From an uncultured Gemmatimonadaceae bacterium (GTDB lineage Bacteria; Gemmatimonadota; Gemmatimonadetes; Gemmatimonadales; Gemmatimonadaceae): 64,000 nt of DNA. Of the stretch, positions 24,012-44,418 are shown piece after piece; within the stretch, counting starts at the first letter, position 1, and each line of letters opens with the position of its first letter. The stretch is taken from positions 32,001-96,000 of the forward strand of contig CAWGJO010000004.1 in NCBI GenBank assembly GCA_963822945.1, read 5' to 3'. The notes beneath the pieces were generated by a model, which ran no database searches, was not told the DNA's origin, and saw nothing but the letters and a program-made list of their open reading frames with translations. The position numbers and the translations under genes were made by a program.

Positions 24012-24993
24012 GCGCGCCCCGCGCCACGAACGCTTCGAGGCAGCCCCCGGGGCGCCGCGCCTGGACCTGCTGGTCGCCAGCCAACTCGATATCTCCCGCA
24101 ACCAGGCCGCCACGCTGATCGCCGAGGGCCATGTGCTCGTGCAGGGACGGCGCCAGAAGGCCAGCTTCCGCGCCGACCCCGGCATGTGGGTCGAGGTCAC
24201 GGTGCCCGCGCCACCCTCGCGCGACGTGCTGGCGGAGCAGATTCCCCTGATCGTCGCCTACGAAGACGACGATGTGTTGGTGATCGACAAGCCGGCCGGC
24301 ATGGTCGTGCATCCCGCGCCGGGCAACTGGACGGGCACCCTCGTGAACGCCCTCAAGGGACGTGGGGGGGAGCTGGCGGACGGGGGCGACGCCGAGCGGG
24401 CGGGGATCGTGCACCGGCTCGACAAGGAAACGTCGGGACTCCTGCTCGTGGCCAAGACCGATCGTGCCCATCGCGTGCTCGGCGCCGCGCTCCAGCGGCG
24501 GGAGATCACGAGGCGGTACGCGGCCCTCTGCTGGGGGCATCTGTCCGCCGACCGCCTGGAGGTGGACAAGCCGGTGGCACGGGATCCGAACGACCGCAAA
24601 CGGATGGCGGTGGTCGCCGGCGGGCGCGAGGCCAGGACCCTGTTCTACCGGCTGGCGCGATTCGACGCCGTCGACCTGCTGCGCGCCCACCTCTTCACCG
24701 GGCGCACGCACCAGATCCGCGTCCACCTGGCGTCGATCGGGCACCCCGTGGTGGGCGACGACACGTACGGGGGCGGGGGAGGGCGGCGACTGGTTTCACT
24801 GCCGCCCAAACGGCATTTTCTCCACGCAGCCTGGTTGGCCTTCCGGCATCCGGTGACCGGAACGCCGGTCGAATTGCGCTCGCCTCTGCCCGACGACCTG
24901 CGGACGGCGGTCGTGGCCGCCGCCGGCCGTGACGCCACCTTCGGAGACGGTGACCCGCTGGAATATTTCGGCTTCTTCCGCGTCGATGACTGA
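24004..24993 (+). CDS. rluD: RluA/RluD family pseudouridine synthase
   Basis: S4 domain, DKPAGMVVHP, IVHRLDKETSG, TGRTHQIRVH. Confidence 0.92.
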   Translation: MSERAPRHERFEAAPGAPRLDLLVASQLDISRNQAATLIAEGHVLVQGRRQKASFRADPGMWVEVTVPAPPSRDVLAEQIPLIVAYEDDDVLVIDKPAGMVVHPAPGNWTGTLVNALKGRGGELADGGDAERAGIVHRLDKETSGLLLVAKTDRAHRVLGAALQRREITRRYAALCWGHLSADRLEVDKPVARDPNDRKRMAVVAGGREARTLFYRLARFDAVDLLRAHLFTGRTHQIRVHLASIGHPVVGDDTYGGGGGRRLVSLPPKRHFLHAAWLAFRHPVTGTPVELRSPLPDDLRTAVVAAAGRDATFGDGDPLEYFGFFRVDD

Positions 24994-25405
24994 GCCTGCC
25001 GAGCTACGGACGCTGTTGTTCCGCGTGGGGACCGTCGTGTACGGCTGCGACATCGCCGCCGTCCGCGAGATCGTCCCGGTCCGCACGGCCACCCGGTTGC
25101 CGGGAACGCCACCCTACGTGGACGGGCTGATCAACCTGCGGGGGACCATCCTCACGGTGATCGACCTGGGGGCGCGGATGGAGGGCCGCCGGTCGTCCAA
25201 CGAGGAGGGGTCGGTGATCATCGTCCAGGTCGGGGGGCGCCATCTGGGCCTGGTGGTCGGCGACGTCATGGATGTGATGCAGATGCGGGTCGACCCACCC
25301 CCCGAGGACCGGGGCGATGACGTGGTGCAGGGGCTGGGACATCTGGGCGACACAGTCGTCATAATAGTTGATATCCCGGCGTTGGTAGGGCAGGTGTTGC
25401 TTTGA
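24986..25405 (+). CDS. cheW: chemotaxis adaptor CheW (1)
   Basis: VREIV, TRLPGTPPYVDGLINLRGTILTVIDL; ATG overlaps the rluD end. Confidence 0.88.
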   Translation: MTEPAELRTLLFRVGTVVYGCDIAAVREIVPVRTATRLPGTPPYVDGLINLRGTILTVIDLGARMEGRRSSNEEGSVIIVQVGGRHLGLVVGDVMDVMQMRVDPPPEDRGDDVVQGLGHLGDTVVIIVDIPALVGQVLL

Positions 25406-25408
25406 CTT

Positions 25409-25468
25409 TCGGTAGGTCGGTAGGTCGGTAGGTCGGTAGGTCGGTAGGTCGGTAGGTCGGTAGGTCGG
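25409..25468 (+). repeat. perfect octamer tandem repeat (TCGGTAGG)x7.5
   Basis: Read directly; begins 4 nt after the cheW stop; partial reverse complement CCGACCGACCGAC at 25489-25501. Confidence 0.97.
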
Positions 25469-25584
25469 CCGCATGCCCGCCGCGCATTCCGACCGACCGA
25501 CGCACGGACAAACCGCCGGGGTCTCGGCAAGACCCAACGGGCGTATTGCGGCCCGCGACAGCTTGGTCCAGACAGGAGAAACAC

Positions 25585-25947
25585 GTGAGCCACACGGTGT
25601 TGATTTGCGACGATGCGATTTTCATGCGGACGATGGTGGGAGACATCCTGCAGTCGGCCGGGTTCGAGATCGTGGGAGAGGCCGAGACGGGGTTGCAGGC
25701 GGTGGAGAAGTACAAGCAGCTGCGGCCGGACCTCGTGACGATGGACATCGTGATGCCCGACATGGGCGGCATCGACGCCGTGCGAGAGATCATGCAGTTC
25801 GATTCGCAGGCGAAGATTCTCATGTGCAGCGCGATGGGGCAGCAGGCGTTGGTGGTCGAGGCCATCCAGGCCGGGGCCAAGGACTTCGTCGTCAAGCCGT
25901 TCCAGCCTAGCCGCGTGCTCGAAGCCGTGCAGCGCGTTCTGAGATAG
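25585..25947 (+). CDS. cheY: single-domain response regulator CheY
   Basis: SD AGGAG then GTG; DDAIFMR, DLVTMDIVMP, MCSAMGQQ, KDFVVKPF. Confidence 0.93.
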   Translation: MSHTVLICDDAIFMRTMVGDILQSAGFEIVGEAETGLQAVEKYKQLRPDLVTMDIVMPDMGGIDAVREIMQFDSQAKILMCSAMGQQALVVEAIQAGAKDFVVKPFQPSRVLEAVQRVLR

Positions 25948-25955
25948 TCGGAGCG

Positions 25956-27929
25956 TTGGATACCTCACCGTACGCCGAGCTATTCCTCACCGAAAGCCGC
26001 GAACACGTTTCGGCGGTGAATCACTGGCTGTTGGAGTTGGAGCGTGGCGCCGGCGGGGACGAGCCGGTCCGCGAGCTCTTCCGCGCGGTGCACACGGTGA
26101 AGGGGATGAGTGCCACGATGGGGTACGCCGTCGTGGCGGAATTGTCGCACGAGATGGAGACCCTGCTCGATCGGGTCCGGCACCGGACCATGGAGATCAC
26201 GCCGGAGGTGATGGACGTGCTGTTTCGCGCCGCTGACGTGCTCGAGCAAGCCGTGGAGGCGTCGGTGGCCGGACGGCTGGACGACGTGCATCCCGAGGGG
26301 GTGCTCGATCGGCTGCGGGCCATGGGGCGCGCCACGCCGCGCGCGTCGGCCGCCATCGCGAGCCTGCCGTTGGACGAGCACCTGTGGACGGTGCCGGCTC
26401 CGGACGGCCAGGGCACGGTGGTGCGTGTGCGGCTGGCGCGAGAAGCGCCGTTGCGCGGCGTGCGGGCCTTTCTCATCGTCCAGCAGCTCGAGGCGCTGGG
26501 CACGGTCACCGGTGTGTCGCCATCGCTGGAGGCCCTGCAGGGCGACCGGTTCGAGTTCGACTTCGCGGTGCGCGTGCGGACCAAGGTGGCGGCGCAGGAG
26601 CTGGAGCGCGTCGTACGGGCTGCCGGCGACGTGATGCTGGTGGCCGTCGAGGGCGCCCCGGGGTTCGGGGCCGCTCCCGCGACGCCGGAGGAGCGCCCCT
26701 CGGGGCTGCTCGCCGCCGTCGAGAGCGCGGACGCCGAGGAGCCGCCGGCGAACGGCGACGCGCCGGCGCCGCCGGCCGCGCCGATCCGCGCCCCCCGCCA
26801 CGTCCGGGTGGACCAGCGCCGCCTGGATGCCCTGATGAACCTGATCGGCGAGCTGGTGATCGCCCGCGGCCGCCTGCTGCAGATCGGCGGCCGGCTGGCC
26901 GATCCCGCGCTCGACGAGACGCTGGCGCAGGCATCGCGATTGATCGCCGATTTGCGCGACGAGATCGTCACGAGCCGCATGGTGCCGGTGTGGCAGGTGT
27001 TCGACCGGTTTCCGCGCCTCGTGCGCGACGCCGCCCGCGGGCTGGACAAGGAGATCGACTTCTCGATCGAGGGCAAGGACATCGAACTCGACCGTTCGAT
27101 GCTCGACGAGATCGGCGATCCGATCGTGCACCTGCTGCGGAACGCCGTGGACCACGGCGTGGAGACCCCGGACGAGCGGGCGCGCCTGGGCAAGCCGCCG
27201 GCAGGCCGGCTCGTGCTCTCGGCGGTGCGCGATCGATCGGCGGTCGTCATCAAGGTGAGCGACGACGGGCGGGGCATCGACCGGGCGCGTGTGCTGGAGA
27301 AGGCGAAGGCGGCGGGGTTCGTGGACGCGAGCCGGACCGACCTCAGCGACGAGGAGCTGGTGCGGCTCGTCGCGCGCCCCGGCTTCTCGACGGCCGACCA
27401 GGTGACCGGGCTCTCGGGACGGGGCGTGGGGGTGGACGCGGTGATCTCCCGGGTGCGGGCGCTGGGTGGCTCGGTGGACATCAAGACGCAGGCGGGGCTC
27501 GGGACCACGGTCACGCTCCGGCTGCCCCTGACGCTGGCCATTCTCCGGGCGCTGATGTCGCGGGTGGCGGACGAGGTCTACGCGGTGCCGATGGCGCATG
27601 TGTGCGAGACGGTGGAACTGGCGGCCGAACGGCTGCGGACGCTGCGTGGCCGCGAGGTGATCACGGTGCGCGACGACGTGTTGCCGCTCCTGCGGCTCCG
27701 TGACATCGTGGGCCTGCCGCGGCGCGAGGCGGATGCGCGCGAGCACGTCGTCGTGCTGGAACTGGCGGACCGGCGGGCCGGACTGGTGGTGGATGGGTTG
27801 GCCGGGCAGCAGGAGATCGTGGTCAAGCAGTACGATCCGGTGCGGACACAGGTGCAGGCGTTCAGCGGCGCGACGATTCTCGGGGACGGTGCCCCGGCGC
27901 TGATCCTCGACGTGGGCAGTCTCTCCTGA
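25956..27929 (+). CDS. cheA: chemotaxis histidine kinase CheA (P1-P5)
   Basis: FRAVHTVKG, LMNLIGELVI, HLLRNAVDHG, DDGRGID, GRGVGVD, GATILGDG. Confidence 0.95.
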   Translation: MDTSPYAELFLTESREHVSAVNHWLLELERGAGGDEPVRELFRAVHTVKGMSATMGYAVVAELSHEMETLLDRVRHRTMEITPEVMDVLFRAADVLEQAVEASVAGRLDDVHPEGVLDRLRAMGRATPRASAAIASLPLDEHLWTVPAPDGQGTVVRVRLAREAPLRGVRAFLIVQQLEALGTVTGVSPSLEALQGDRFEFDFAVRVRTKVAAQELERVVRAAGDVMLVAVEGAPGFGAAPATPEERPSGLLAAVESADAEEPPANGDAPAPPAAPIRAPRHVRVDQRRLDALMNLIGELVIARGRLLQIGGRLADPALDETLAQASRLIADLRDEIVTSRMVPVWQVFDRFPRLVRDAARGLDKEIDFSIEGKDIELDRSMLDEIGDPIVHLLRNAVDHGVETPDERARLGKPPAGRLVLSAVRDRSAVVIKVSDDGRGIDRARVLEKAKAAGFVDASRTDLSDEELVRLVARPGFSTADQVTGLSGRGVGVDAVISRVRALGGSVDIKTQAGLGTTVTLRLPLTLAILRALMSRVADEVYAVPMAHVCETVELAAERLRTLRGREVITVRDDVLPLLRLRDIVGLPRREADAREHVVVLELADRRAGLVVDGLAGQQEIVVKQYDPVRTQVQAFSGATILGDGAPALILDVGSLS

Positions 27930-27941
27930 GGGAGCATTTCC

Positions 27942-28562
27942 ATGGAAGAGCTTCATTCCCTGAAGGCGCTGCAGTTGGATGCCCTGCGCGAGGTGGCCAA
28001 CATCGGCGCCGGGCATGCGGCGACGGCTCTCTCGCAGATGGTCGGCGGCACGATCATGATCAGCGTGCCGCGCATCAACATCCAGCGGCTCGACGCCATC
28101 GCCCCGATGGTGGCGGCCCCCGACGAGCCGGTCGCGGCGGTGCTGCTGCACATTCTGGGCGACCTGTCGGGCCGGACGCTCCTCGTGTTCCCCAAGGCGG
28201 CGGCGCTCCAGTTGGCCGAGGTGATGCTGCACCGGCCGAGCGGGTCGTCGACGGAGCTCGGGGAACTGGAGCAGTCGGCGATCAAGGAAGCCGGCAACAT
28301 TCTCAGCAGCGCGTACATGAACGCGCTCAGCGAATTCATGGGCATGCTCCTGCTGCCGTCGCCGCCGGCGCTCGCGGTGGACATGTCGGCGGCCGTCCTC
28401 ACCACGGCCTATCTGCAGTTCGGCACGAGCCGGGATTACGTGTTCTGCGTGGAGAGCGACTTCATGCTCCAGGGCGAGGCGGACCGCCTGCGCGGCTTCT
28501 TCCTGCTGCTGCCCGACCCGGCATCGTTGCAGGCCATTCTGCGCGCCATTCGCGTGACGTGA
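27942..28562 (+). CDS. cheC: CheY-P phosphatase CheC
   Basis: Two active-site repeats DALREVANIG and SAIKEAGNIL. Confidence 0.92.
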   Translation: MEELHSLKALQLDALREVANIGAGHAATALSQMVGGTIMISVPRINIQRLDAIAPMVAAPDEPVAAVLLHILGDLSGRTLLVFPKAAALQLAEVMLHRPSGSSTELGELEQSAIKEAGNILSSAYMNALSEFMGMLLLPSPPALAVDMSAAVLTTAYLQFGTSRDYVFCVESDFMLQGEADRLRGFFLLLPDPASLQAILRAIRVT

Positions 28563-28563: not shown

Positions 28564-31254
28564 ATGGCCGCTTCGTCCCCTGGTTCCGACCACGACCGCG
28601 AGATTCTGAGGTCGTTTGCCCGACGGATCGACCCGTCGGACGCCGGCGCGCACAACAACCTGGGGGTGTTGTACTTCAACAAGGGACTGCACGAGGAAGC
28701 CGTGCAGGCCTTCATGCGGGCGCTGGAACTCGATCCCCGCATGGAAGTGGCCCAACGCAACATCGAGATCGCCTACTTCAACACCGGCTACTACGACCGG
28801 CGTGTCCCCGAGTTGCAGGAGCGGGTGCGCCGCGAACCGGCGGATCGGGACGCGCGGTGGGAGTTGGCCCGCACGTACGCGCTGCTCGGCGAGCATCAGC
28901 AGGCCGTGGAGGAGTTCTCGGCGCTGCTCGCGCACACGCCCGACGACGTGGGCGCGATCCTGCAGTTGGGGCTCGCCGAACGCGCGCTCGGCCACACCGA
29001 GCAGGCGCAGCAGTGGCTGGAGCGGGCGCGAGACCTCGACCCCGACAGTTCGCTGGTCCACTTCTATCTCGGCGAGGTGGCGTACAATCGCGGGCTCAAC
29101 GACGACGCGCTGGCGTCGCTGGAAATGGCGCTGGCCCTCAATCCCGACAACTACGACGCGCTCTACCTGATGGGATTCGTGCTCGGCGACATGGGGCGGC
29201 AGGAGGAGGCCCGGGCGCTGACCAACCGCGCCATCAAGCTCAATCCTACGCTGTCGCGCGCGCAGGCGAATCTCTCCATCGACCAGAACAAGCCGGAGCG
29301 CTACGAGGCGTTGGTCGGCGGACGCCGGTCGCATCGCATGGAGGTGTCCCCCGACGGCCAGCTGGCGCACTACAACCTCGGGCTCGCCTTCCGGCAGAAG
29401 GGATACTACCCCGAGGCGCTGCGCGAGTACCGCCTCGCGCTCGACCGTGGCGAGGACGAGGACCTCGTGCGGCAGGCGATGGCCGAGGTGCACCTGGTGA
29501 GTGGCGACGTGAGCGCGGCGCTGGCGCTCTACGACCGCCTCCTCGAGCGGATGCCCGCGAGCCCCAAGCTCTGGAACGAGCGCGGCGTCGCGTTGCACCA
29601 GGACGGGCGCGCGGCCGAGGCGGAGGAGAGCTATCGCCGCGCCATCGCCGCCGACCGGCGCTACGCGCTGGCCCACAACAATCTGGGGGTCGCGCTCGGG
29701 CAGTCGGGAGACGGGGACGCCGCCCTCGCCGAGTTCCGCGCGGCCCTGGACGGGCGGCCCGACCTCGTGAAGGCCCGGCTGAACCTCGCGCTGCTACTCT
29801 ACAAGGCGAAGCGGCTGCCGATGGCGCTCGAGGCGTATCGCCAGGTGCTGGCCACCGAACCGGAACATCCGGCGGCCTGGAACGGCGCCGGCGTGGTGCT
29901 CGCCGATTTTCAGAAGTTCGAGGACGCGCGGAACGCCTTCGCGCGGGCCATCCAGGCCCGGCCGCAGTATGCCGAGGCGCACTACAACCTGAGCTTCTGT
30001 CTCTCGAATCTGGGCGATTTCGAGGGTGCGTTGCGCGAGACCAAGCTGGCGCTGGAAATGGAGCCGTACTACATGGGACAGAAGTTCGAGCTCGCCATCG
30101 ACCTGCAGTACGAAGACCCGGATCTCTCCATTCAGCCCGACCTGGGCGGCGAGGCCCATACGGCAGACGCGATCGAGGCGTTCGACTTCGACGCCGGCCT
30201 ACTGGACTCCGTGTTCACGCAACTGGCGCCGGCGCCGGGGCCGCTGCCGCAGGTGGAGACGGACCCGTACAAGATGGCTGGCGACTTCCTGTCCAAGGGG
30301 CTCGTCGAACGGGCCCAGATGGAGGTGCGGCGGGCGCTGGCCCAGGGCGCCGACTGCGTGGCCGGCAATGTGCTGCTCGGCCAGACGTTCATGCGACAGG
30401 GGGTGTACGGGGAGGCGCTGGAGCGCTTCCGCGAAGCACGCCGCACCGCGCCCGACGACCCCGTGGCGATGCAAGGCGAGGCGCGCTGTCTGCTCAACCT
30501 CGGGCAGGGGGCGGCGGCGCTGCCCCTCGTCGAGAAGCTGGTGCTGCACGCCTCGGAAGACATCGACACGCTGATGCTCGCGGCCGGCGTCCGCGCCGCG
30601 GCGGGCGACCCCGCCGCAGCGCTGGCCACGCTCGACGCCGCCCGACGCGTGGCGCCGATGCGGGCCGACGTGCATCGCGAAATGGGCGACATCGCCCGGC
30701 GGCTGGGCGACCTGGAAGGCGCGATCATCAACTATCGCGACGCGCTGGCGCTCGATCCGCAGTTCGCCGGTGTGCGCTACGAACTGGCGCACCTGCTGAT
30801 CGAGAAACGACAGCTGGCCGCGGCGGAGTACGAACTGCTCTCGGCGCTGGAGACGGTGCCCACATACGCCCAGGCGACGCTGGAACTGGCCCGGCTGCGT
30901 CGCATGACCGGGCGGGCCGACTCGGCGCTGCCGCTGCTCATCGATCTCCTGCAGCGCGACCCGTACCACTTCGACGCCCTGATCGCGCTCGGGGAGACGC
31001 TGCTCGCGCTCGGGCGCAAGGAGGACGCGGTCACGGCGTTCGCCCGCGTACTCCGCTTCGATCCTCACCACGTGGGCGCCCTGTACCACGAAGGCGTCCT
31101 GTTCGCCGAACGCCGCCACTTTCGAGAGGCCATCGACCGGTGGGAGCGGGTGCGGACGCTGGCGCCGGCCACCGACTACGCCCGCCGGGCCCGCCGCGAG
31201 ATCCGCTCGGCCACCGACCTGCAACGCATCTTCGCTGAACGCGCAACCACCTGA
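28564..31254 (+). CDS. large cytoplasmic TPR-repeat protein (896 aa)
   Basis: Many TPR units (AHNNLGV, AHYNLG, A..LDP); no signal peptide seen. Confidence 0.88.
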   Translation: MAASSPGSDHDREILRSFARRIDPSDAGAHNNLGVLYFNKGLHEEAVQAFMRALELDPRMEVAQRNIEIAYFNTGYYDRRVPELQERVRREPADRDARWELARTYALLGEHQQAVEEFSALLAHTPDDVGAILQLGLAERALGHTEQAQQWLERARDLDPDSSLVHFYLGEVAYNRGLNDDALASLEMALALNPDNYDALYLMGFVLGDMGRQEEARALTNRAIKLNPTLSRAQANLSIDQNKPERYEALVGGRRSHRMEVSPDGQLAHYNLGLAFRQKGYYPEALREYRLALDRGEDEDLVRQAMAEVHLVSGDVSAALALYDRLLERMPASPKLWNERGVALHQDGRAAEAEESYRRAIAADRRYALAHNNLGVALGQSGDGDAALAEFRAALDGRPDLVKARLNLALLLYKAKRLPMALEAYRQVLATEPEHPAAWNGAGVVLADFQKFEDARNAFARAIQARPQYAEAHYNLSFCLSNLGDFEGALRETKLALEMEPYYMGQKFELAIDLQYEDPDLSIQPDLGGEAHTADAIEAFDFDAGLLDSVFTQLAPAPGPLPQVETDPYKMAGDFLSKGLVERAQMEVRRALAQGADCVAGNVLLGQTFMRQGVYGEALERFREARRTAPDDPVAMQGEARCLLNLGQGAAALPLVEKLVLHASEDIDTLMLAAGVRAAAGDPAAALATLDAARRVAPMRADVHREMGDIARRLGDLEGAIINYRDALALDPQFAGVRYELAHLLIEKRQLAAAEYELLSALETVPTYAQATLELARLRRMTGRADSALPLLIDLLQRDPYHFDALIALGETLLALGRKEDAVTAFARVLRFDPHHVGALYHEGVLFAERRHFREAIDRWERVRTLAPATDYARRARREIRSATDLQRIFAERATT

Positions 31255-36640: not shown

Positions 36641-38257
36641 ATGGCCATCAAGGGCAGCTTGAAGGAGGCCAGCCTCCCCGACGTGCTCCAGCTCCTGGCG
36701 ATGGGCCGGAAGACCGGGTGTCTGAGCGTCAACCACCGGACGAACTTCGGCTACATCTATTTCGACAAGGGGCGCATTTCGTACGCGTCGATCGTGAACC
36801 GGCGGGACCGGTTGGGCGACATGCTGGTGAAGAACGGCATCATCTCCGCCGAGCAGCTCAAGTCGGCCATCGAGGCCCAGGATCAGGAGCGCGAGCGGCG
36901 CATCGGCGAACTGCTGGTGGAGATGGGCTACCTGTCGCGCGACGCGCTGCGCCAGCACATCCGCGAGCAGATCGAGGAGGCGGTGTACTTCCTGTTCACC
37001 TGGAATCAGGGCTCGTTCAACTTCGAGGCCGACGTCCAGCCGGACGAGCAGGAATTCCTGGTGTCGATCAATCCCGAGTCGCTGCTGCTCGAAGGCGCGC
37101 GACGCGTGGACGAGTGGACGCTCGTCGAGAAGAAGATTCCCACGTTCGACATCGTGTTCGAGGTCGATCGGCCGAAGATCCTGGCCAGCGACCTCGATCT
37201 GACGCCGGAGCAGCGGGGGCTGCTGGAGCTGGTCGACGGCCGGCGGGACGTGCAGCAGATCATCGACGCCTCGGGCATGGGCGAGTTCGAAGTGGGGAAG
37301 GTGCTGTACGGCCTCGCCACCACCGGCTTCCTGCACCGCATCGGCACGTCGAAGGCCGGGGACGCCCAGGTGTCGGAAGCCCGGGTGCAGGAGCACTACA
37401 ACCTCGGCGTCGCGTTCTACAAGACGGGGATGTTCGACGAAGCGGTGCGCGAGTTCCGCCGCGTGATGGACCTCAAGCCCAACGACCCGTCGGCGCAGTT
37501 CTACCTCGGGCTGGTGCAGCTGCGCCAGGAACGGTGGCACGATGCGCTGGCGACGTTCGAGGCCGCGGTGGCGCGCCCCGGCGCCACCGCCGCGGTGTAT
37601 CACAACCTCGCGTACGCACTCGAGCGGCTGGGGCGCCTGGCCGAGGCGCAGCGGGCGCTGCAGGAGGCGTCGGCCCGCAGTCAGGGGGCCAGCCCGCAGA
37701 TCGAGACCTCGATCGGCATCGTCGCGCTGCGCTCCGGCGATCTGGCGGCCGCTGACGAGGCGCTGACGGCCGCGCGGCCGCTGTGGCCCCGGGCGCCGTC
37801 GGCGGCCTGGTATCACTATGCGGCGCTCACGGCGGCGCTGCTCGGCGACCTCGGGCGTGCCCAGACCATTCTCGACGAAGCGGTGGGCGCGCATCCGCAC
37901 AGCGCCGTGCTCTACAACAATCTCGCCGTGGTGCGCGAACGCCAGAACGCCGGCGAGGCGGCGGCGGCGGCGCTCGACCGGGCGCTGTCGGAGGATCCCT
38001 CCGTGCCGCAGGTGCACAAGAACCTTGGCGACGTGGCCTACCGCGCCGGGCGGTTCGACGAGGCGCTCGAGTCGTACCAGCGCGCCATCAAAGCGAAGCC
38101 GGATCTCGGGGACGACGTCTACCTCAAGCTCGGGAACATCAAGTTCCGCCAGCAGCAGAAGGAGGAGGCGCTGCGGCTCTGGCAGCGCGCGCTCGAACTC
38201 GATCCCACCAACGCCATCGTGCGCACCAACCTCGACGCCGTGCGGCAGGCGCTGTGA
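36641..38257 (+). CDS. DUF4388 domain plus TPR protein (2)
   Basis: IKGSLKEASLPDVLQLL..RKTGCL, RLGDMLV, WNQGSFNF, SLLLEGARRVDEW, multiple TPRs. Confidence 0.87.
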   Translation: MAIKGSLKEASLPDVLQLLAMGRKTGCLSVNHRTNFGYIYFDKGRISYASIVNRRDRLGDMLVKNGIISAEQLKSAIEAQDQERERRIGELLVEMGYLSRDALRQHIREQIEEAVYFLFTWNQGSFNFEADVQPDEQEFLVSINPESLLLEGARRVDEWTLVEKKIPTFDIVFEVDRPKILASDLDLTPEQRGLLELVDGRRDVQQIIDASGMGEFEVGKVLYGLATTGFLHRIGTSKAGDAQVSEARVQEHYNLGVAFYKTGMFDEAVREFRRVMDLKPNDPSAQFYLGLVQLRQERWHDALATFEAAVARPGATAAVYHNLAYALERLGRLAEAQRALQEASARSQGASPQIETSIGIVALRSGDLAAADEALTAARPLWPRAPSAAWYHYAALTAALLGDLGRAQTILDEAVGAHPHSAVLYNNLAVVRERQNAGEAAAAALDRALSEDPSVPQVHKNLGDVAYRAGRFDEALESYQRAIKAKPDLGDDVYLKLGNIKFRQQQKEEALRLWQRALELDPTNAIVRTNLDAVRQAL

Positions 38258-39081
38258 TGACGGTCGCCGAGCCGCAGGACGAGGACTTTCAGGCCCTGCT
38301 CGACAAGATCTCGCGCGATCGGGGATTTCACTGCGCCAGCTACAAGGCCACCTGCCTGCGCCGCCGGGTCGGGGTGCGCATGCGGGCACGCGGGCTGCAC
38401 CGCTACGTGGACTATGCGGGCCTGCTCGATGCCGACCTGGGGGAATACGACCTGCTGCTCGACGCGCTGACGATCAACGTCACGAAGCTGTTCCGGAATC
38501 CCGAGGTGTACCACGCCATGCTGCGCGACGTGGTGCCGGTGGTGTGGGACGCCGCGCCGTCGCGAATTCGGGTGTGGAGCGCCGGATGCGCGTCGGGCGA
38601 GGAGCCGTATTCGCTGGCCGCCCTGTTCCACCTGCACGCGGCGGCGCGTGGCGAACTCCACCGGCTGCCGCGCGTGGAGATTCTGGGCACCGACATCGAC
38701 CGGCGCAGCCTGGCGGCGGCGGAGTGCGGCGAGTTCGAGGAGCGCGATTTCAGCGAGACGCCCGAGGCCTGGCGGTCCGCGTATTTCGCGCCCGCGGCGC
38801 CGTTCACGGTGGTCCCCGAGTTGCGCCGGCTGGTGAAGTTCCGCCAGCATGATCTACTGCGCGAGCCCCCGCCGCAGGGCGAGCACGACTTGATCGTGTG
38901 CCGAAATGCGATCATCTACTTCGATCGGGTGTCGCAGGAGCGGCTGTTCGAATCCTTTTACTCGGCGTTGGCCCCCGGAGGGTTCCTGGTACTCGGCAAG
39001 GTGGAAACGCTCTTCGGTCGTGCGCGGCAACTCTTCCGTCCCGTGGACGCTCGCGAACGGATCTTCGTGCGGCCCGCATGA
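38257..39081 (+). CDS. cheR: chemotaxis methyltransferase CheR
   Basis: TINVTKLFRN, RVWSAGCASGEEPYS, GTDID, CRNAIIYF, GGFLVLG. Confidence 0.93.
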   Translation: MTVAEPQDEDFQALLDKISRDRGFHCASYKATCLRRRVGVRMRARGLHRYVDYAGLLDADLGEYDLLLDALTINVTKLFRNPEVYHAMLRDVVPVVWDAAPSRIRVWSAGCASGEEPYSLAALFHLHAAARGELHRLPRVEILGTDIDRRSLAAAECGEFEERDFSETPEAWRSAYFAPAAPFTVVPELRRLVKFRQHDLLREPPPQGEHDLIVCRNAIIYFDRVSQERLFESFYSALAPGGFLVLGKVETLFGRARQLFRPVDARERIFVRPA

Positions 39082-39560
39082 GCGAGCAACGCGTCGGGAT
39101 CGCCGATCTCGCGGTCGCCGCGGGGGAGGGAACGCTCTGCACGCTCGGGCTCGGGTCGTGCGTGGCGATCGTGCTCTACGACGCGGAGGCGCGGGTGGGC
39201 GGGCTGGCGCACGTCCTGTTGCCCGAGCCGGGCATGTCGCGCCTGCACGACAACCCGGCGCGCTTCCCGGAGACCGCCGTGCCCGCCCTCATCGCACGGA
39301 TGCGGGAGCTCGGCGCCGATCCGGCCCGGATGACGGCCCGCCTCGTGGGCGGGGCCAGCATGTTCTCCAGTCTGCTGCCCCGCGGCACGCCGACCATCGG
39401 CGGGCGCAACGTCGACTCCTCGCGGCAGGCCCTGCAGCGGGCCGGCATCACGATTGCCGGCGAGGACGTGGGGATGGAGCACGGGCGCAGCGTCTATCTG
39501 CACATCGCCGATGGCCAGGTCGAAGTGCGCTCGCTCGCGCGAGGGAGTCGTGTCCTCTAA
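39078..39560 (+). CDS. cheD: chemoreceptor glutamine deamidase CheD
   Basis: TLGLGSCV, GGLAHVLLP, LVGGASMF, IGGRN, EDVG...GRS. Confidence 0.92.
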   Translation: MSEQRVGIADLAVAAGEGTLCTLGLGSCVAIVLYDAEARVGGLAHVLLPEPGMSRLHDNPARFPETAVPALIARMRELGADPARMTARLVGGASMFSSLLPRGTPTIGGRNVDSSRQALQRAGITIAGEDVGMEHGRSVYLHIADGQVEVRSLARGSRVL

Positions 39561-40617
39561 GCCCTCCGTCCTGGTGGTGGACGACAGCGCGCTCATGCGG
39601 CGCGTGATCGCGGAGCTGGTCACCGAATCGGAGGAGTTCACCGTGGTCGGCGTGGCGCGGAACGGGCGGGAGGCGATTGCCCACGTGCTGGCGCTCAACC
39701 CCGACCTCGTGACACTCGACATCGAGATGCCGGAGATGGACGGGCTGCAGGCGCTGGCGCAGATCATGCGCGATGCTCCCCGCCCGGTGGTGATGCTGAG
39801 CGGGGCCGAGACGATGGATGGGCGCGATGCCGCGCTGCGCGCGCTGGAACTCGGCGCCGTGGACTTCGTGCGCAAGCCGTCGGGCCCCATCAGCCTCGAC
39901 CTCGCCGTGGTGGGCGAGCGGTTGCGGGGCGCGCTCCGGGCCGCCGCGCAGGCGAACCTGCGCGGCCTGCAGACGCCGGTACGGCGCCCCGGCACGGGAC
40001 GCCGCGGGGGCGTGCGGCCGGCCGCGTCCCGACCCAGGCGCGCCGTGGCGATCGCGGCCTCGACCGGCGGCCCGCGCGCGCTCACGCAGGTCCTGCCGGG
40101 GCTGCCGGCGGCTCTCGACGCCGCGGTGCTCGTGGTGCAGCACATGCCGCCCGGGTTCACGCGCAGCCTGGCGCAGCGGCTCGACGCGATGGGGCCGCTG
40201 CCGGTGCACGAGGCCGAGGCGGGTCAGATCGTCCAGAGCGGGCATGTATACGTGGCGCCGGGCGGCAAGCACATGCGCGTGGCCGACGACGCCCAACCGG
40301 TGATCGTGCTCGACGAGACGCCGCCCGTGTGGGGCGTGCGACCGGCGGCCGATCCGCTCTTCCGGTCGGTGGCGGCCCTGTTCGGCGAGCGGTGCGTGGG
40401 GGTGGTACTCACCGGCATGGGGCGCGACGGCGCCGACGGGCTGCGGGCCATTCGCGATGCGGGGGGCCGCCGCGTCGTGCAGGACCGGGACACCTCGATC
40501 ATCTACGGCATGCCGCACGCCGCCCTGGAGGCCGCGGGCGCCGATCGCGTGGCGCCGCTGGCGAGCGTCGCGGCCGCCATCGTCGCGCTGCTGGCCACGG
40601 CGGGTGAGCCGGCGTGA
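39550..40617 (+). CDS. cheB: chemotaxis methylesterase/response regulator CheB
   Basis: Receiver domain VVDDS..TLDIEMP; ASTGGP, VQHMP, LTGMGRDG. Confidence 0.95.
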   Translation: MSSKPSVLVVDDSALMRRVIAELVTESEEFTVVGVARNGREAIAHVLALNPDLVTLDIEMPEMDGLQALAQIMRDAPRPVVMLSGAETMDGRDAALRALELGAVDFVRKPSGPISLDLAVVGERLRGALRAAAQANLRGLQTPVRRPGTGRRGGVRPAASRPRRAVAIAASTGGPRALTQVLPGLPAALDAAVLVVQHMPPGFTRSLAQRLDAMGPLPVHEAEAGQIVQSGHVYVAPGGKHMRVADDAQPVIVLDETPPVWGVRPAADPLFRSVAALFGERCVGVVLTGMGRDGADGLRAIRDAGGRRVVQDRDTSIIYGMPHAALEAAGADRVAPLASVAAAIVALLATAGEPA

Positions 40618-41411
40618 TCGACGAACACTGGGGCCTGCTGCGCAAACCGTTCGCGAACACGCCGGATCCGGCGTTCGTGTACCACTCCCCGGTGTTCGAC
40701 GAAGGATACGCCCGCCTGCTGTACGACGTCACGGATCTGCGGGGGGGCCTGTCGCTGGTCACGGGCGAGATCGGGTGCGGCAAGACGATGCTCGTCGAGG
40801 CGCTGCGCGCCCGGCTCGGCGGCACTGCCTACGACCCCTGGGTCGTGGAGTATCCGCGCCTCACCGGTGCGCAGTTGCTGCAGTTCGTCGCTGCGGCGGC
40901 CGCGCTGCCCAACCCGCCGAAGAACAAGCCGGCGCTGGTGGCGGCGCTGCGGGGCCGGCTGGCCGAGCTGCACGCCGGGGGACGGCGCCCCGTGCTGATC
41001 GTGGACGAGGCGCAGCTGGCGAGTCCGAGCCTGCTCGAGGAACTGCGGCTGCTCACGAACTTCGAGGACCGGACCGACAAGCACCTCCACGTCGTGTTGC
41101 TGGGGCAGCCGGAGTTGCGCGAGCGCGTCGTGAAGCGTCCGCAGATCGACCAGCGCGTGAGCCTTCGGTTCCATCTCGACCCACTCGATGCCGGTGACGT
41201 GCAGGCGTACGTCCTGCATCGGCTGCGTGTGGCGGGCGCGATGCACGAGATCTTCACGGCCGAGGCGCTGGCCGCCCTGGCGGCGCGGAGCGGTGGTGTT
41301 CCGCGCGTCGTGAACAACCTGGCCATGCAGGCGCTGTTCGTTGGGGCGATGCGCGGATTGCCGCGCGTCGATGAGCGACTGATACACGACGTGGCGGACG
41401 ACCGGCAATGA
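40614..41411 (+). CDS. ExeA/GspA-family AAA ATPase (ATPase domain only)
   Basis: WGLLRKPFANTPDP, GEIGCGKT, LIVDEAQ, LEELRLL, LLGQPEL, SGGVPRVVN. Confidence 0.88.
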   Translation: MIDEHWGLLRKPFANTPDPAFVYHSPVFDEGYARLLYDVTDLRGGLSLVTGEIGCGKTMLVEALRARLGGTAYDPWVVEYPRLTGAQLLQFVAAAAALPNPPKNKPALVAALRGRLAELHAGGRRPVLIVDEAQLASPSLLEELRLLTNFEDRTDKHLHVVLLGQPELRERVVKRPQIDQRVSLRFHLDPLDAGDVQAYVLHRLRVAGAMHEIFTAEALAALAARSGGVPRVVNNLAMQALFVGAMRGLPRVDERLIHDVADDRQ

Positions 41412-42103
41412 AGACACCCACCATCAGCTACCGCGAATGGCTCCACCGGAAGCCGACGCCGCCGGCGTCGGGCGCGCCGGTGGCGGAGCCCGGTCTGCCG
41501 TCTCCGGAAACGCCCGCGCCTGCTGGCGGGGAGCCCGACGCGCAGCGTGCCGAGCCGGTGGAGGTCGTCGGTCCCGCGCAGCCGCGGTCCGCCGCAGCGC
41601 AGGCGGCGGTCTCCGTCGCAGCGCAGGCGGCGGTCCCCGTCGCAGCGGCGGCGTCCGCCGTACCCGCGGCGAAAGCGGTGGAGCATCTGGTGTTCCGGGT
41701 GGGGCGCGAGTTGTTCGCGCTGCCCCTCGACGTGGTCGAAGAAGCGCTCGACATCGACCGCATCCAGCGCATCCCCGAGATGAACCCCACGATGTTGGGG
41801 GTGCTCACGCTGCGCGGCGCCACCGTGCCGCTGTACGCGCCGTCGATTCCGCTGGGCGTGCCCGACAGCGACCACCGGGCGGCACTCGTCTTCGTTCGGG
41901 CGAGAGGGATGGTGGCCCTCGCCGTGGACGATGTGGACGACGTGCTGGAGATCGCCGCCGACGACGTGCAGCGCCCGCCGCTGGATTTCACCGACGGCGT
42001 GTTGTCGGGCGTCGCGCGTCGTGGCGCGGACCTCATCGGCGTGCTGGATGCCGACGCGCTCATCGCCGCCTGTCGCGCCGAACCGGTGCTGGAGACCGCA
42101 TGA
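41408..42103 (+). CDS. cheW: CheW (2) with Pro/Ala-rich N-terminal extension
   Basis: LVFRVGRELFALPL, RIPEM..MLGVLTLRG. Confidence 0.82.
   Translation: MKTPTISYREWLHRKPTPPASGAPVAEPGLPSPETPAPAGGEPDAQRAEPVEVVGPAQPRSAAAQAAVSVAAQAAVPVAAAASAVPAAKAVEHLVFRVGRELFALPLDVVEEALDIDRIQRIPEMNPTMLGVLTLRGATVPLYAPSIPLGVPDSDHRAALVFVRARGMVALAVDDVDDVLEIAADDVQRPPLDFTDGVLSGVARRGADLIGVLDADALIAACRAEPVLETA
41593..41647 (+). repeat. in-frame 24-bp tandem repeat (AAQAAV[S/P]V) in the CheW2 linker
   Basis: Two copies differing at one base plus a partial third. Confidence 0.85.
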
Positions 42104-42582
42104 CCAAGCCTCGTATTGCCAAGATCGTCTGGTTCCGCCTGGGCCCGGACTACTTCGCGGCCGACATCTTCTCGGTGGAGCGCGTGCTCCGCTACCAGCC
42201 GCCGACCACGGTGCCCAACGTGCCCGAATGGATCGAAGGCGTGATCGAGTATCAGGGGCGCGTGGTCCCGGTGGTGAGCCTGCGCCGCCGCTTCCAGCTC
42301 CCGGCCGTGCCGGCCACGCCCGAGACCCGCGTGCTGATTCTCAAGTCGGGCGACGAGTGGGTGGGTGTGGTGGTCGACGCCGTGCTCGAAGTCGCCAGCT
42401 TCGACGAGGCGCTGCTGTCGCCGCCGCCGCCGCTCTTCCGGGGGCTCGCCGGGGAATACCTGCGCGGCATCGTCCGCCTGAACGACCGTCTGCTGATCTA
42501 TCTCGACGTCGACCGGCTGCTGTCGTCCGACGACCGGTTGGCCCTGGAGCGCGCGACCGAGGAGGCGCTGCCGAATGGCTGA
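42100..42582 (+). CDS. cheW: CheW (3)
   Basis: WFRLG, VERVL, VPNVPEWIEGVIEYQGRVVPVVSL, VGVVVDAVLEV. Confidence 0.88.
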   Translation: MTKPRIAKIVWFRLGPDYFAADIFSVERVLRYQPPTTVPNVPEWIEGVIEYQGRVVPVVSLRRRFQLPAVPATPETRVLILKSGDEWVGVVVDAVLEVASFDEALLSPPPPLFRGLAGEYLRGIVRLNDRLLIYLDVDRLLSSDDRLALERATEEALPNG

Positions 42583-43420
42583 TGCCCCGCTCGGCGAATA
42601 CCGGGCACAGTACGCGGCGTTGGACTCGCGGCTCGACGCGCCGACCGCCGGCGCCGAACGCGATGCACTGAAGGCCGAGATCGTGGCGTTCTTCCGGCAG
42701 GTGGAGCGGGACGTCGTCGAACTCACGAAGCTGCGCGACGAGATCAAGACGCTCGTGGACAAGTGGAAGGCGCTTGCCGCGCCGTCGCTGGCCCCCGAGT
42801 TCAGCGCGGCGCGGCCGGTGGTTCACGCCGACCACATCGGGGCGTCCACGTTCATCGAGAAGGGCTGGAGCCGGCTGTCGCTGGGCGAGTACGAGGCGGC
42901 GGAGGCGGCCCTGCGCAAGGCCATCGAACTGTCACCCAACGATCCGCAGTCCGAAGCGCTGCTCGGCTGGGCGCTGATGCTCCAGGAGAAGTACGACGAC
43001 GCGCTGCTGACCTTCCAGCAGGTGCTCACCCGCGAACCGATGAACGCGTTGGCGCGCATCAACGTCGGCTATATCTGCCTCAAGAAGCGGATATTCGGGG
43101 AGTCCATCGAACACCTGTCCAAGGCCATCCGGCTGGACAACGACAAGAAGGCGACGCTGTACGCGCACTTCTACCTGGGGCTGGTGTATCTGGAGCGCGA
43201 CATGTTCGAGGACGCCCAGACCTTCTTCCAGAAGACCATCGCGCTGGGACCCAACTTGATCGAGGCCTACTACGAACTGGGACGCGCGTACTGGTTCAAC
43301 GGCCAGCGCGACGAGGCGATGCAGACGTGGCGCGACGGATTCGCCATGAACAAGTTCAATCCATGGGGAAAGCGGTGCGCCGAAGTCCTGAAAACGGTGG
43401 AGGCGGGCGGGGAGCCATAG
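42575..43420 (+). CDS. coiled-coil plus TPR protein
   Basis: N-terminal heptad-like helix followed by several TPR units. Confidence 0.8.
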   Translation: MADAPLGEYRAQYAALDSRLDAPTAGAERDALKAEIVAFFRQVERDVVELTKLRDEIKTLVDKWKALAAPSLAPEFSAARPVVHADHIGASTFIEKGWSRLSLGEYEAAEAALRKAIELSPNDPQSEALLGWALMLQEKYDDALLTFQQVLTREPMNALARINVGYICLKKRIFGESIEHLSKAIRLDNDKKATLYAHFYLGLVYLERDMFEDAQTFFQKTIALGPNLIEAYYELGRAYWFNGQRDEAMQTWRDGFAMNKFNPWGKRCAEVLKTVEAGGEP

Positions 43421-43452
43421 CCGGACGGCGCGCCCGCGCGCCGGTGCGTGCC

Positions 43453-44418
43453 ATGCTGGTCGCGTGCGCGGTGGCGCTGGCCTTGCCGGCGGCGGCGCGG
43501 AGCCAGGCGGCTGCCCCGCTTCGCCTCGACCGTGGGCGGTTCACCGTGGTCGCCTATCCGGAGGACGCGCGGCTGGCGCGGACCATTCTCCAGACCGCGC
43601 TGGTGCACGACACCTTTCCGTGGCTGCCCCGTCCGCGGGAGCACGTGCTGATCGCGATCGCGCCCGACTACGCGCGATTCCGCGAATGGGCCGGCCCCGA
43701 CGCGCCCGAATGGGGCGCGGCGCTCGCCTTTCCCGACACGCGGCGCATCGTGCTCCAGGGAAGCCGGTCTGGCGCCGACGCCGGAAACCCCGTCGAGGTG
43801 GTGCGCCACGAACTGGCGCACCTGGCGCTCCACGAGTATCTGGGCGGCCTGCCGCCGCGCTGGTTCGACGAGGGCTATGCCAGTTACTCGGCCCACGAAC
43901 TCTCGCGCGACGATGCGCTCGCGGCGAATCTGGCGCTGGCGCTCGAGGGGGTGCCGACCCTTCGGCAGTTGGAGGGGTACTTCTCCCAGGGGGCCACGAC
44001 GGCGCGCGCCGGGTATGCGCTGGCGGCGAGTGCCGTGGCCGATATGGCAGCGCTGGATCCCCGGAACGGTCTGACACATGTGTTTGCGGCCTGGCGCGAG
44101 ACCGGGTCTCTCGATCGGGCGTTGCGCCAGTCCGACGGGATCACGCTCGACGGCTTCGAAGCCGACTGGCGAAAGCAGGCGCGCCGCCGTTACGGCGCAC
44201 TGGCCATCATGGAAGATCTCACCCTGCTCGGGATCCTGTTTCTGGTGTTCGTGCTGCCGCTCTGGATTGCGCGACGCCGGCGCGATCGCTCCCGGATGGA
44301 GGCGTTGAAGGCGGCGGATGCGGCCGCCGAGGCGTTGGAGCGCGAAAGCGCGCTGGCGGAGCTGCTGGGCCCGTGGCCGCCGGCGGGAGGGACGGGCGGT
44401 GGAACGGGCGATGCGTAG
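43453..44418 (+). CDS. peptidase MA-like (gluzincin) protein with signal peptide and C-terminal TM anchor
   Basis: HELAH...PRWFDEGYA; TM LLGILFLVFVLPLWI followed by RRRR; start approximate. Confidence 0.8.
   Translation: MLVACAVALALPAAARSQAAAPLRLDRGRFTVVAYPEDARLARTILQTALVHDTFPWLPRPREHVLIAIAPDYARFREWAGPDAPEWGAALAFPDTRRIVLQGSRSGADAGNPVEVVRHELAHLALHEYLGGLPPRWFDEGYASYSAHELSRDDALAANLALALEGVPTLRQLEGYFSQGATTARAGYALAASAVADMAALDPRNGLTHVFAAWRETGSLDRALRQSDGITLDGFEADWRKQARRRYGALAIMEDLTLLGILFLVFVLPLWIARRRRDRSRMEALKAADAAAEALERESALAELLGPWPPAGGTGGGTGDA

Follow-up and report, generated by a model that had tools for sequence, protein, structure and literature searches.

A non-flagellar chemosensory gene array of Gemmatimonadota with an MglA GTPase, a tandem DnaA-type ATPase and a predicted c-di-GMP-binding PATAN-TPR protein

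Organisation of the gene array

A chemosensory gene array that encloses genes for an MglA-type GTPase and for a tandem DnaA-type ATPase was analysed in a 64,000-nucleotide stretch of DNA (hereafter the window; contig C4, positions 32001–96000, GenBank CAWGJO010000004.1) from an uncultured Gemmatimonadaceae bacterium (assembly GCA_963822945.1), whose genome of 3.97 Mb in 45 contigs is 88% complete and has a G+C content of ~70%. Pfam scans of the + strand frames between 24929 and 44444 gave 20 co-directional + strand genes at 24986–44418, which match gene for gene the list and order given in an earlier reading of the bare DNA sequence (the original prediction). That reading had also described ~20 tightly packed genes with a GTPase block nested within the che genes, and both features were recovered: the mgl and DnaA-like genes lie between cheC and cheR, and 14 of the 19 internal junctions overlap or are separated by no more than 3 nt (10 overlaps, 4 gaps of 1–3 nt, 4 gaps of 8–32 nt and one of 179 nt, the longest, at the cheW1–cheY junction), counts that depend on start codons picked from in-frame candidates, which are chosen and unproven. 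The stop codon of rluD, immediately upstream, is overlapped by the ATG of cheW1. The genes and features are as follows (window positions, strand, product and supporting match; Pfam values are E-values).

24986..25405, +, cheW1, 139 aa (Pfam CheW 4.8e-30)
25585..25947, +, cheY, single receiver domain, 120 aa (Pfam Response_reg 1.7e-30)
25956..27929, +, cheA, 657 aa, with Hpt, P2, dimerisation, HATPase and CheW domains and no receiver domain (Pfam)
27942..28562, +, cheC, CheY-P phosphatase family (Pfam CheC 2e-21; NCBIfam CheC_Thtogales 171 bits, cut-off of 250 not reached)
28564..31254, +, 896-aa TPR protein (Pfam TPR families)
31257..32399, +, first PATAN(DUF4388)-TPR protein, 380 aa (Pfam DUF4388 4.8e-30)
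32392..33234, +, TPR and Roadblock/LC7 protein, 280 aa (Pfam on frame 32170–33234: TPR, Robl_LC7 1.5e-8)
33231..33578, +, Roadblock/LC7 protein, 115 aa (Pfam Robl_LC7 1.6e-8; generic Roadblock matches in PDB)
33575..34051, +, mglB-like Roadblock protein, 158 aa (PDB 6h5b, Myxococcus xanthus MglB; weak Robl_LC7)
34072..34677, +, mglA, Ras-like GTPase, 201 aa (PDB 6h17, M. xanthus MglA)
34681..36639, +, tandem DnaA-type AAA+ ATPase (DnaA2x), 652 aa (Pfam Bac_DnaA twice, 293.8 bits)
36538..36636, +, C-terminal tail of DnaA2x, residues 620–652 (alignment; predicted complex)
36641..38257, +, PATAN2-TPR protein with predicted MshEN_N insertion, 538 aa (Pfam DUF4388 in two stretches, plus TPR)
36809..36970, +, tandem MshEN_N-type predicted cyclic di-GMP (c-di-GMP) motif, PATAN2-TPR residues 57–110 (relaxed motif, NF053729, fold)
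38257..39081, +, cheR (Pfam CheR 1.7e-46)
39078..39560, +, cheD (Pfam CheD 7.2e-26)
39550..40617, +, cheB, receiver and methylesterase (Pfam CheB_methylest 1.1e-64)
40614..41411, +, AAA_22 (ExeA-like) ATPase (Pfam AAA_22 7e-22; NCBIfam TIGR03015 178.7 bits, cut-off of 324.5 not reached)
41408..42103, +, cheW2, variable among relatives (Pfam CheW 9.4e-25)
42100..42582, +, cheW3 (Pfam CheW 4.4e-36 on the same frame)
42575..43420, +, 281-aa TPR protein, TPR281 (Pfam TPR families)
43453..44418, +, Peptidase_MA_2 zinc peptidase (Pfam 1.7e-9; start uncertain, 43363–43453)

The chemosensory set thus comprises a core of CheA, three CheW proteins, CheY and CheC together with the adaptation proteins CheR, CheD and CheB. 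In the alignment of the cluster CheY the acidic pair, the conserved Asp (TMDIVMP), the Ser and the Lys are present, which we take to be the functional residues of the receiver domain. A consensus scan found no terminator-like site on the + strand inside the array; over both strands 4 such sites were observed against 6.1 expected, the sole + strand site lying at 24800 inside rluD. A promoter scan returned a single sigma-70-like site (25336–25365) against 0.8 expected by chance, which provides no evidence of a promoter. Contigs of metatranscriptome run X1 (7% of sampled words) covered 29 of the 30 bins of 24900–44500 at 90–99% likeness, and one of them spans the cheY–cheA junction (25487–25984); this coverage was rejected as evidence of transcription or co-transcription, as contigs of an RNA library can be DNA and can derive from relatives.

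MglA and its Roadblock neighbours

Residues 3–194 of the GTPase align to M. xanthus MglA (6h17, E 1.7e-73) and to Thermus MglA (3t12, E 3.7e-65), with the stretches LYTVPGQ and TDRTLFFDFLP identical in query and MglA. Both features that we take to be hallmarks of MglA, a TxxGQ motif (Thr for the Asp of DxxGQ) and an intrinsic switch I Arg, are present. The mglB-like gene ends 20 nt upstream of mglA, and its product matches M. xanthus MglB (6h5b, E 8e-8) and, below the cut-off of 23 bits, Pfam Robl_LC7 (18.6 bits). Judged by sequence, both MglA and MglB are genuine relatives of their Myxococcus counterparts, and the 158-aa protein is a putative MglB-type GTPase-activating protein of MglA by fold family, similarity and position; the adjacent 115-aa Roadblock protein matches generic Roadblock structures only. 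The source genome encodes a second MglA paralog (C21:379800–380381, 56% identity), which has no MglB-like neighbour among the open reading frames (ORFs) scanned, and holds a third, degraded copy in frame-shifted pieces (C36:16748–17212).

A tandem DnaA-type ATPase with a tail predicted to dock on PATAN2-TPR

DnaA2x consists of two DnaA domain III cores separated by a disordered stretch and a helical linker, followed by a second disordered stretch and a conserved C-terminal tail. An AlphaFold2 (AF2) model built from 40 sequences had a mean predicted local distance difference test score (pLDDT) of 84.2 and a predicted template modelling score (pTM) of 0.47. The best Foldseek match was domain III of Bacillus subtilis DnaA (TMt 0.91, 35% identity), and a search with the whole model returned nothing beyond DnaA and generic double-ring AAA+ proteins. 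Each half resembles domain III of DnaA, and Hda, in being a DnaA-type AAA+ core with its lid. The protein differs from DnaA in carrying two cores per chain, in the added helical linker and C-terminal tail, and in lacking domains I and IV: DnaA_N and Bac_DnaA_C were absent among the 25 Pfam families matched, and the C-terminal 179 residues match just the end of Bac_DnaA. It also differs from Hda, the Hda model TIGR03420 scoring 137 bits against a cut-off of 194.8, with DnaA and Hda as the best NCBIfam names. A canonical three-domain DnaA with domains I and IV is encoded on contig C20, and module 1 of DnaA2x is 39% identical to it. Across the 40-sequence alignment module 1 keeps Walker A and B, SDRPP, the paired box VII arginines and NVREL, and module 2 keeps the ATPase motifs in most sequences, with Walker A/B residues lost in four sequences from family f7 (see below).

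Within the last 20 residues E634 and E649 are invariant and K635, V637 and W638 nearly so in the same alignment. Two single-module forms found in relatives keep module 1 together with a version of this tail, EKIVWDWP in G222 and a diverged W-x-LDWP in G299. Because the DnaA2x and PATAN2-TPR genes are directly adjacent in each of the 20 relatives examined, and because C-terminal peptides are often bound in TPR grooves, a complex of PATAN2-TPR (538 aa, alignment of 21 sequences) with ATPase residues 372–652 (alignment of 40) was modelled. The pair reached an ipSAE of 0.77 (0.76–0.78 in three runs) against 0.00, 0.33 and 0.00 for the controls, with at least 72% of contacts agreeing between runs and a partner pLDDT of at least 74. 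In calibration, 116 of 157 solved complexes and 2 of 215 mismatched pairs attained this score mark, counts that hold only roughly here because our own alignments were used. The predicted interface joins TPR residues 283–493 to tail residues 620–652, with the tightest pairs between tail E634–V637 and TPR 423–464, including the conserved Q457, N461 and D464. The invariant tail of DnaA2x is thus predicted to dock in the TPR groove of PATAN2-TPR, and no described counterpart was found for a tandem DnaA-type ATPase with such a putative docking tail. The original prediction had cast the AAA+ ATPases of the array as outputs or scaffolds, which these models would uphold for the tandem ATPase alone, as the one predicted to dock on a TPR scaffold.

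A predicted c-di-GMP receptor among the PATAN-TPR proteins

All three DUF4388 matches of the genome fall within the cluster. The PATAN domain of the second PATAN-TPR protein is split by an insertion (residues 57–110) that comprises two copies of the 24-residue MshE motif. The MshEN_N domain is described as two tandem c-di-GMP motifs of 24 residues, RLGxx(L/V/I)(L/V/I)xxG(L/V/I)(L/V/I)xxxxLxxxLxxQ (Wang et al. 2016, PMC5013675, as far as its text is accessible). The relaxed motif of these authors matches PATAN2-TPR at residues 57 and 87, and the strict motif fails only at an L-to-I change at position 21, plus L-to-I at position 2 and Y at position 11 of motif II. The relaxed motif occurs nine times in the 1.45 million residues of high-GC3 (G+C at third codon positions) frames of the genome, and PATAN2-TPR holds the sole tandem pair. 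NCBIfam NF053729 ('c-di-GMP_motif, MshE-related') scores 57.2 bits here (cut-off 38) and recognises 20 of 21 PATAN2-TPR orthologs, those of family f7 among them. The first PATAN-TPR protein has an insertion in its PATAN domain too, in which neither a relaxed MshEN motif nor an NCBIfam hit was found.

An AF2 model of the N-terminal 230 residues of PATAN2-TPR (pLDDT 83) matched MshE-N bound to c-di-GMP (5htl; Foldseek probability 1.00, 56–58 columns, root-mean-square deviation (rmsd) 1.7–1.8 Å, 41–43% identity) and Thermus PilF-GSPIIB in its c-di-GMP state (9gl5; probability 1.00, 53 columns, rmsd 1.0 Å). The E-values of these matches are weak (0.014–0.74) because the MshEN unit is short, and this local unit was the only match, none covering the whole PATAN domain at E<=0.001. 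The insertion shares with the MshEN_N domains of Vibrio cholerae MshE and Thermus PilF the two 24-residue motifs, the short spacer and a four-helix unit superposing at 1.0–1.8 Å over 53–58 columns. It differs from them in its spacer of 6 rather than 5 residues and in being inserted in a PATAN domain, where theirs is N-terminal on a secretion ATPase. PATAN2-TPR is therefore predicted to bind c-di-GMP through an MshEN-type insertion. The supplement of Wang et al. (PMC5013675), in its accessible part, lists one M. xanthus REC-DUF4388 protein (receiver plus DUF4388) among MshEN_N proteins, so the combination is known in kind, though not in the PATAN2-TPR family.

Independence of the chemosensory genes from flagella

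The source genome has a second CheA gene, on contig C27, within a flagellar region that encodes FliM, FliG, FliF, FliI, FliH, flagellins and FliD along with its own cheY, cheW, methyl-accepting chemotaxis protein (MCP), CheX and cheB. Between the cluster and the flagellar region the identity is 32% for CheY and, across the kinase core, 44% for CheA. Of the 101 genomes sampled from the order, 22 gave a FliG match (f1 16/37, f2 4/36, f3 1/27); G010, G014, G015, G063 and G097, which are 97–99% complete and all carry the full cluster, gave none. The cluster CheA is the sole CheA in seven of eight cluster-bearing genomes tested, and each of these eight has 2–6 MCP genes elsewhere and none beside the cluster. 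Similarly, none of the four MCPsignal matches of the source genome lies on contig C4; the cluster itself holds no MCP, and its pathway must therefore use receptors encoded elsewhere. Taken together, a sole CheA, distant MCPs and no FliG mean that receptors in those relatives must signal through the cluster CheA, to an output other than the flagellar motor. Genus g18 has FliG in four of four genomes, yet a reduced locus only. The Che part of the array is thus not a flagellar pathway. Flagella also differ within genus g1, three other sampled members of which (G010, G014, G015) are without a FliG match whereas the source genome has a full flagellar region.

Conservation and reduced variants

The tandem DnaA-type protein was used as the marker for relatives of the array. 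Among 30 relatives drawn from three families of the order it was present in 29, the exception being G018, which matched solely with its true DnaA. Of 301 genomes sampled across the phylum 189 had it, every one belonging to the same class (f1 52/69, f2 119/125, f3 3/3, f4 4/6, f7 9/47, f8 1/4), and it was seen in none of the 46 genomes from six other families. The phylum tallies include four unpublished genomes (G175, G200, G079, G117), from which no loci were taken. Tandem-length relatives in the ESM Atlas are listed under Gemmatimonadota alone. At least 79 public loci were retrieved and, among the matches listed, those that span both ATPase modules or are cut by contig ends belong to Gemmatimonadota; loci of other phyla among these matches align over ~0.7–1.2 kb, that is one ATPase module, and are presumably ordinary DnaA.

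For 19 order relatives 40 kb around the marker were fetched and 29 window proteins mapped by tblastn. In 16 of these loci the genes from ileS through the cluster to mraW-ftsI are in identical order, joined by PNP in 14 of the 16; in G027 the cluster is present through the peptidase, with mraW and ftsI not found in the stretch fetched, and the loci of G025 and G030 end at contig ends. AAA_22, cheW2 and cheW3 vary among the order loci, the AAA_22 gene being confined to genus g1 and G097 among the loci examined. CheY (76–99% identity) and MglA (61–100%) are the best conserved array proteins by tblastn. The order was kept in seven of ten further loci when two g17 variants are counted, with the full order in three more f1 genera and two f4 genomes. 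The g17 variant, from two complete genomes, carries a diverged 342-aa PATAN protein directly before mglA and has neither Roadblock genes nor cheR. A cultured Gemmatimonas species has a cluster variant that lacks mglB and cheR. In three f7 genomes che and mgl genes are missing and the locus has a minimal form, ileS-rluD-[DnaA-like]-[PATAN2-TPR]-[peptidase], after which comes a sigma-54 activator. Counted over all loci fetched from the class, the order was kept in 24 of 29, two others being truncated at contig ends and the three f7 loci reduced to a core. A neighbourhood comparison of this kind, which had been proposed as a check on the original prediction, thus found the gene order conserved in relatives from four families of the class.

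Ten f1 genomes without a high-scoring (E<=1e-60) or tandem marker match were examined by locating ileS and mapping the 20 kb downstream. Between rluD and the secreted TPR protein or mraW these genomes contain the following.

G059, G070: che and mgl genes, without the ATPase, cheD, TPR281 or the peptidase
G093, G095 (flagellated genus g18): cheW-Y-A-C, PATAN-TPR, cheR, cheB and TPR281, with no mgl or Roadblock gene
G186: mglA and PATAN-TPR only
G134: mglA, PATAN2-TPR, cheR and TPR281
G222: single-module DnaA-like protein, PATAN2-TPR, TPR281 and peptidase
G299: nearly the full array, with a single-module ATPase
G018: PATAN-TPR protein and peptidase
G105: almost nothing

A PATAN-TPR gene is common to nine of these ten loci, counting the paralog-like copy of G018, and is retained where only che, only mglA or only the DnaA-like gene accompanies it; DnaA-like, PATAN-TPR and peptidase genes occur with neither che nor mgl in G241, G266, G304 and G222. 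In these natural variants (che only, mglA only, ATPase only) evolution has, in effect, produced a series of deletions. The MshEN insertion is absent in five of six loci that lack the DnaA-like gene (G186, G070, G059, G095, G093; the exception is G134), and it is present in loci with the ATPase, in the 20 of 21 orthologs noted above and also in G222 and G299. This co-occurrence is a lead without a statistic attached, the five insertion-less genomes being kin from three genera.

Genomic neighbourhood

The flanks named in the original prediction, divIVA-ileS-lspA-rluD upstream and the division and cell wall (dcw) cluster downstream, were confirmed by Pfam. Upstream lie a YggS/YlmE-like gene, DivIVA (17940–18443), PNP, ileS, a dksA/traR-like gene, two lspA genes and rluD, and downstream a secreted TPR protein, mraW, ftsI, murE, mraY, ftsW, murG, murC, ftsA and ftsZ. 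As had been stated from the sequence alone, flagellar and pilus structural genes were absent among the window ORFs scanned with Pfam, the lone PilM_2 signal being FtsA.

The two lspA (signal peptidase II) genes are in tandem (22907–23500 and 23511–24011); both are kept in most g1 relatives, and in farther relatives the two queries match one and the same region. A CdaA-type diadenylate cyclase (DAC and CdaA_N domains, 14161–15294) follows folP ~10 kb upstream of the cluster, so that the neighbourhood encodes a cyclic di-AMP synthase as well as a predicted c-di-GMP receptor. A 1018-aa ORF at 6474–9530 (+) has no Pfam family at E<=1e-5 and is opposed over the same span by a 991-aa ORF on the other strand. 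Ahead of mraW (44437–46633) no MraZ domain was found; this interval contains an 89-aa ORF without a Pfam family (44437–44706), and the gene before mraW encodes a 583-aa TPR protein with a signal-peptide-like start, whose position is conserved in relatives. Elsewhere, on contig C21, a 2189-aa frame (L072:12–6581) matches enolase C- and N-terminal and PPDK_N domains, and may be either an artefact of GC3-based ORF calling in 70% G+C DNA or an unusual fusion.

Comparison with described systems

The array resembles the Frz-MglA/MglB system of Myxococcus in combining a non-flagellar Che pathway with MglA, MglB and extra Roadblock paralogs. The Frz operon encodes a CheA-CheY fusion (FrzE), a dual-receiver protein (FrzZ) and a cytoplasmic receptor (FrzCD), and the Myxococcus polarity module includes MglC and RomR/RomX. 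Here, unlike in Frz, mglBA is nested inside the che operon, CheA is without a receiver, there is neither a dual-receiver protein nor an MCP, and CheC and CheD are present. We know of no Frz counterpart for the DnaA-type ATPase or for a PATAN-TPR c-di-GMP hub. The encoding of Che genes with PATAN proteins is shared with the cyanobacterial Tax/Pix systems and their PatA-type regulators; unlike PatA-type PATAN-REC proteins, however, both cluster PATAN proteins carry TPR and no Response_reg, and one has the predicted MshEN_N insertion. The accessible description of the cyanobacterial systems (10.1101/2021.06.11.447907) includes neither MglA/MglB nor a DnaA-type ATPase. The cluster works like a blend of Frz-MglA and Tax/Pix and is a member of neither.

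Wuichet and Sogaard-Andersen (PMC4316618) report Group 1 MglA in Gemmatimonadetes with occasional PATAN neighbours, and mglA encoded away from its signalling partners in Myxococcus and Bdellovibrio; in the accessible main text 'chemosensory' refers only to Myxococcus Frz, and 'chemotaxis' and 'DnaA' are absent. No published description of the cluster was found in the full-text literature, a coverage from which subscription journals are excluded. A chemosensory pathway coupled to an MglA switch is of a known kind. The elements of the present gene set added by this analysis are the MshEN-type motif in PATAN2-TPR, the predicted tail-in-groove contact and the separable modules around PATAN-TPR.

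Proposed function and alternatives

The reading to which we give somewhat more credence than doubt is that of an operon-like chemosensory array with a non-flagellar output and a c-di-GMP-sensing PATAN-TPR hub, whose target is most likely the type IV pilus motor. In this scheme orphan MCPs encoded elsewhere would drive CheA and so set the level of CheY-P, which CheC and the CheR/CheB/CheD adaptation proteins would tune, while MglB and the Roadblock proteins would set MglA-GTP. CheY-P, MglA-GTP, c-di-GMP and the ATP state of the DnaA-type ATPase would converge on the PATAN-TPR hub, whose PATAN domain would relay the outcome, a choice or switch of the active pole, to a polar machine, most likely the type IV pilus motor.

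MglA acts on pili or motility in Myxococcus, Thermus and Bdellovibrio. Pilus parts in the source genome include a PilB-like ATPase with an MshEN domain, a PilT-like ATPase and two pilM-to-secretin sets, and the non-flagellated relatives have PilM. Type IV pili are favoured as the target because of these parts, because in Synechocystis the PATAN domain is described as the output domain, with PilB1 and PilC as its binding partners (preprint 10.1101/2021.06.11.447907, accessible part), and because the MglA roles described in the accessible text of PMC4316618 concern pili and gliding. The PilB-like gene (MshEN and T2SSE, 717 aa; contig C22, L073:4704–11751) stands outside any pil operon, after a Ser/Thr kinase and a CHASE3 hybrid histidine kinase with two receiver domains, and the PilT-like T2SSE ATPase (392 aa; contig C25, L074:9741–10919, −) has an odd place between accB and accC.

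Several observations weigh against this proposal. No result ties CheY to MglA or to another cluster protein, and the tail-TPR complex is a matter of model confidence, not a measurement. Pfam MshEN (PF05157) does not match the PATAN2 insertion even at E 10, a miss that may arise because the Pfam consensus begins only within motif II in the supplementary alignment of Wang et al. (PMC5013675, accessible part). Among the window ORFs scanned, none within or next to the cluster is a pilus gene, and phyletic profiling for pili is uninformative since PilM_2 occurs in 281 of the 301 sampled genomes, with or without the cluster. In the cluster of the two complete g17 genomes mglB and cheR are missing. 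Modules have been lost independently of one another and therefore need not act in one pathway. Finally, the neighbourhood from PNP to ftsI is itself syntenic, so the conserved order is partly just that of a stable chromosome region and, over a syntenic block of 30–40 kb, weak evidence of coupling. The single co-expressed module of the original prediction is accordingly upheld as to its genes, which are real, their operon-like packing and their conserved order, and is amended in that it is divisible, reduced loci keeping its parts separately. Of the Che-MglA control module proposed with it, the non-flagellar Che part and, judged by sequence, the kinship of MglA and MglB with the Myxococcus proteins stand.

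We consider it unlikely that the output is instead cell division, polar growth or budding, or replication control, with the ATPase acting on DnaA (like Hda) or on the divisome and Che/MglA timing or placing the event. The cluster always lies between ylmE-divIVA-...-rluD and mraW-ftsI-...-ftsZ, no pilus gene is nearby, DnaA and Hda are the top NCBIfam names for the ATPase, and its module 1 retains all of the DnaA ATPase motifs and has the identity to the genome's own DnaA given above. However, the dcw-adjacent position is common to the whole syntenic block, the Hda model stays under its cut-off, DnaA domains I and IV are missing, and the described roles of MglA and PATAN known to us all concern pili or motility. 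A link to division or polar growth, also raised in the original prediction, is indicated only by the position beside divIVA and dcw.

Quite unlikely, in our judgement, is a set of neighbours by descent that work separately, namely a che operon, an mglBA pair and a trio of DnaA-like, PATAN-TPR and peptidase genes. Such parts do occur singly at the same site (G093/G095, G186 and G241/G266/G304/G222) and the flanks are equally conserved, but separate working fits poorly with the nesting of the mgl and DnaA-like genes between cheC and cheR, with the tight junctions and the lack of terminator-like sites found by the scan, and with the retention of the PATAN-TPR gene in nearly every variant.

Control of an envelope or secretion process (exopolysaccharide, protein export or outer-membrane assembly) is very unlikely. 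The Dif chemosensory system of Myxococcus controls exopolysaccharide, and c-di-GMP, in the sources available in part, commonly governs such processes. The AAA_22 protein resembles the PEP-CTERM-associated ATPase TIGR03015, below the cut-off, but its gene has the narrow distribution noted above. The array ends with a zinc peptidase, followed by the secreted TPR protein. This peptidase has a signal-peptide-like N-terminus, a HELAH zinc site, one C-terminal hydrophobic helix and a short basic helical tail, and looks, from its sequence, like an inner-membrane-anchored, periplasm-facing enzyme with a short cytoplasmic tail; it adjoins the ATPase/PATAN2-TPR pair even in family f7. Against an envelope role, Pfam found no glycosyltransferase or exporter in the cluster, and the TPR matches to PrsT, PilW and like models are generic repeat matches, far under the cut-offs. 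An ordinary second flagellar chemotaxis pathway, in which CheY merely binds FliM (an alternative that the original prediction had itself set against its reading), is hardly credible and already largely refuted: the CheC/CheD content recalls flagellar or archaellar pathways, the best NCBIfam names are CheY_Halo, CheA_Halo and Thermotogales CheC and CheD (every one under cut-off), CheY is highly conserved and the source genome does carry flagellar genes, yet a separate che set of that genome lies in its flagellar region, FliG was not found in five near-complete relatives that retain the cluster, the cluster CheA is the sole CheA in seven of eight relatives tested, and flagellated g18 has only a reduced locus.

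Returning to the PATAN-TPR hub, a more specific version of the proposal is tentative and, as a whole, doubtful. It holds that a duplicated DnaA core without DNA-binding parts would serve as an ATP-driven switch or polymer, plugged by its tail into a c-di-GMP PATAN-TPR hub that integrates CheY phosphorylation, MglA-GTP, c-di-GMP and ATP to place a polar machine (pili, or the growth or division zone in these sometimes budding bacteria). If true, this would represent a novel way for bacteria to control polarity, and the first case in which a Che pathway is physically wired to MglA within a single operon.

Implications

To our knowledge the connection from Che to MglA has been elucidated in Myxococcus alone, with its genes dispersed and its connectors identified singly. 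Across the main order of Gemmatimonadota, a widespread soil phylum with cultured members, che and mgl are nested in one operon, and the genes between them are therefore candidate connectors. A DnaA-type ATPase working outside replication would also bear on the reuse of AAA+ proteins of the initiator clade.

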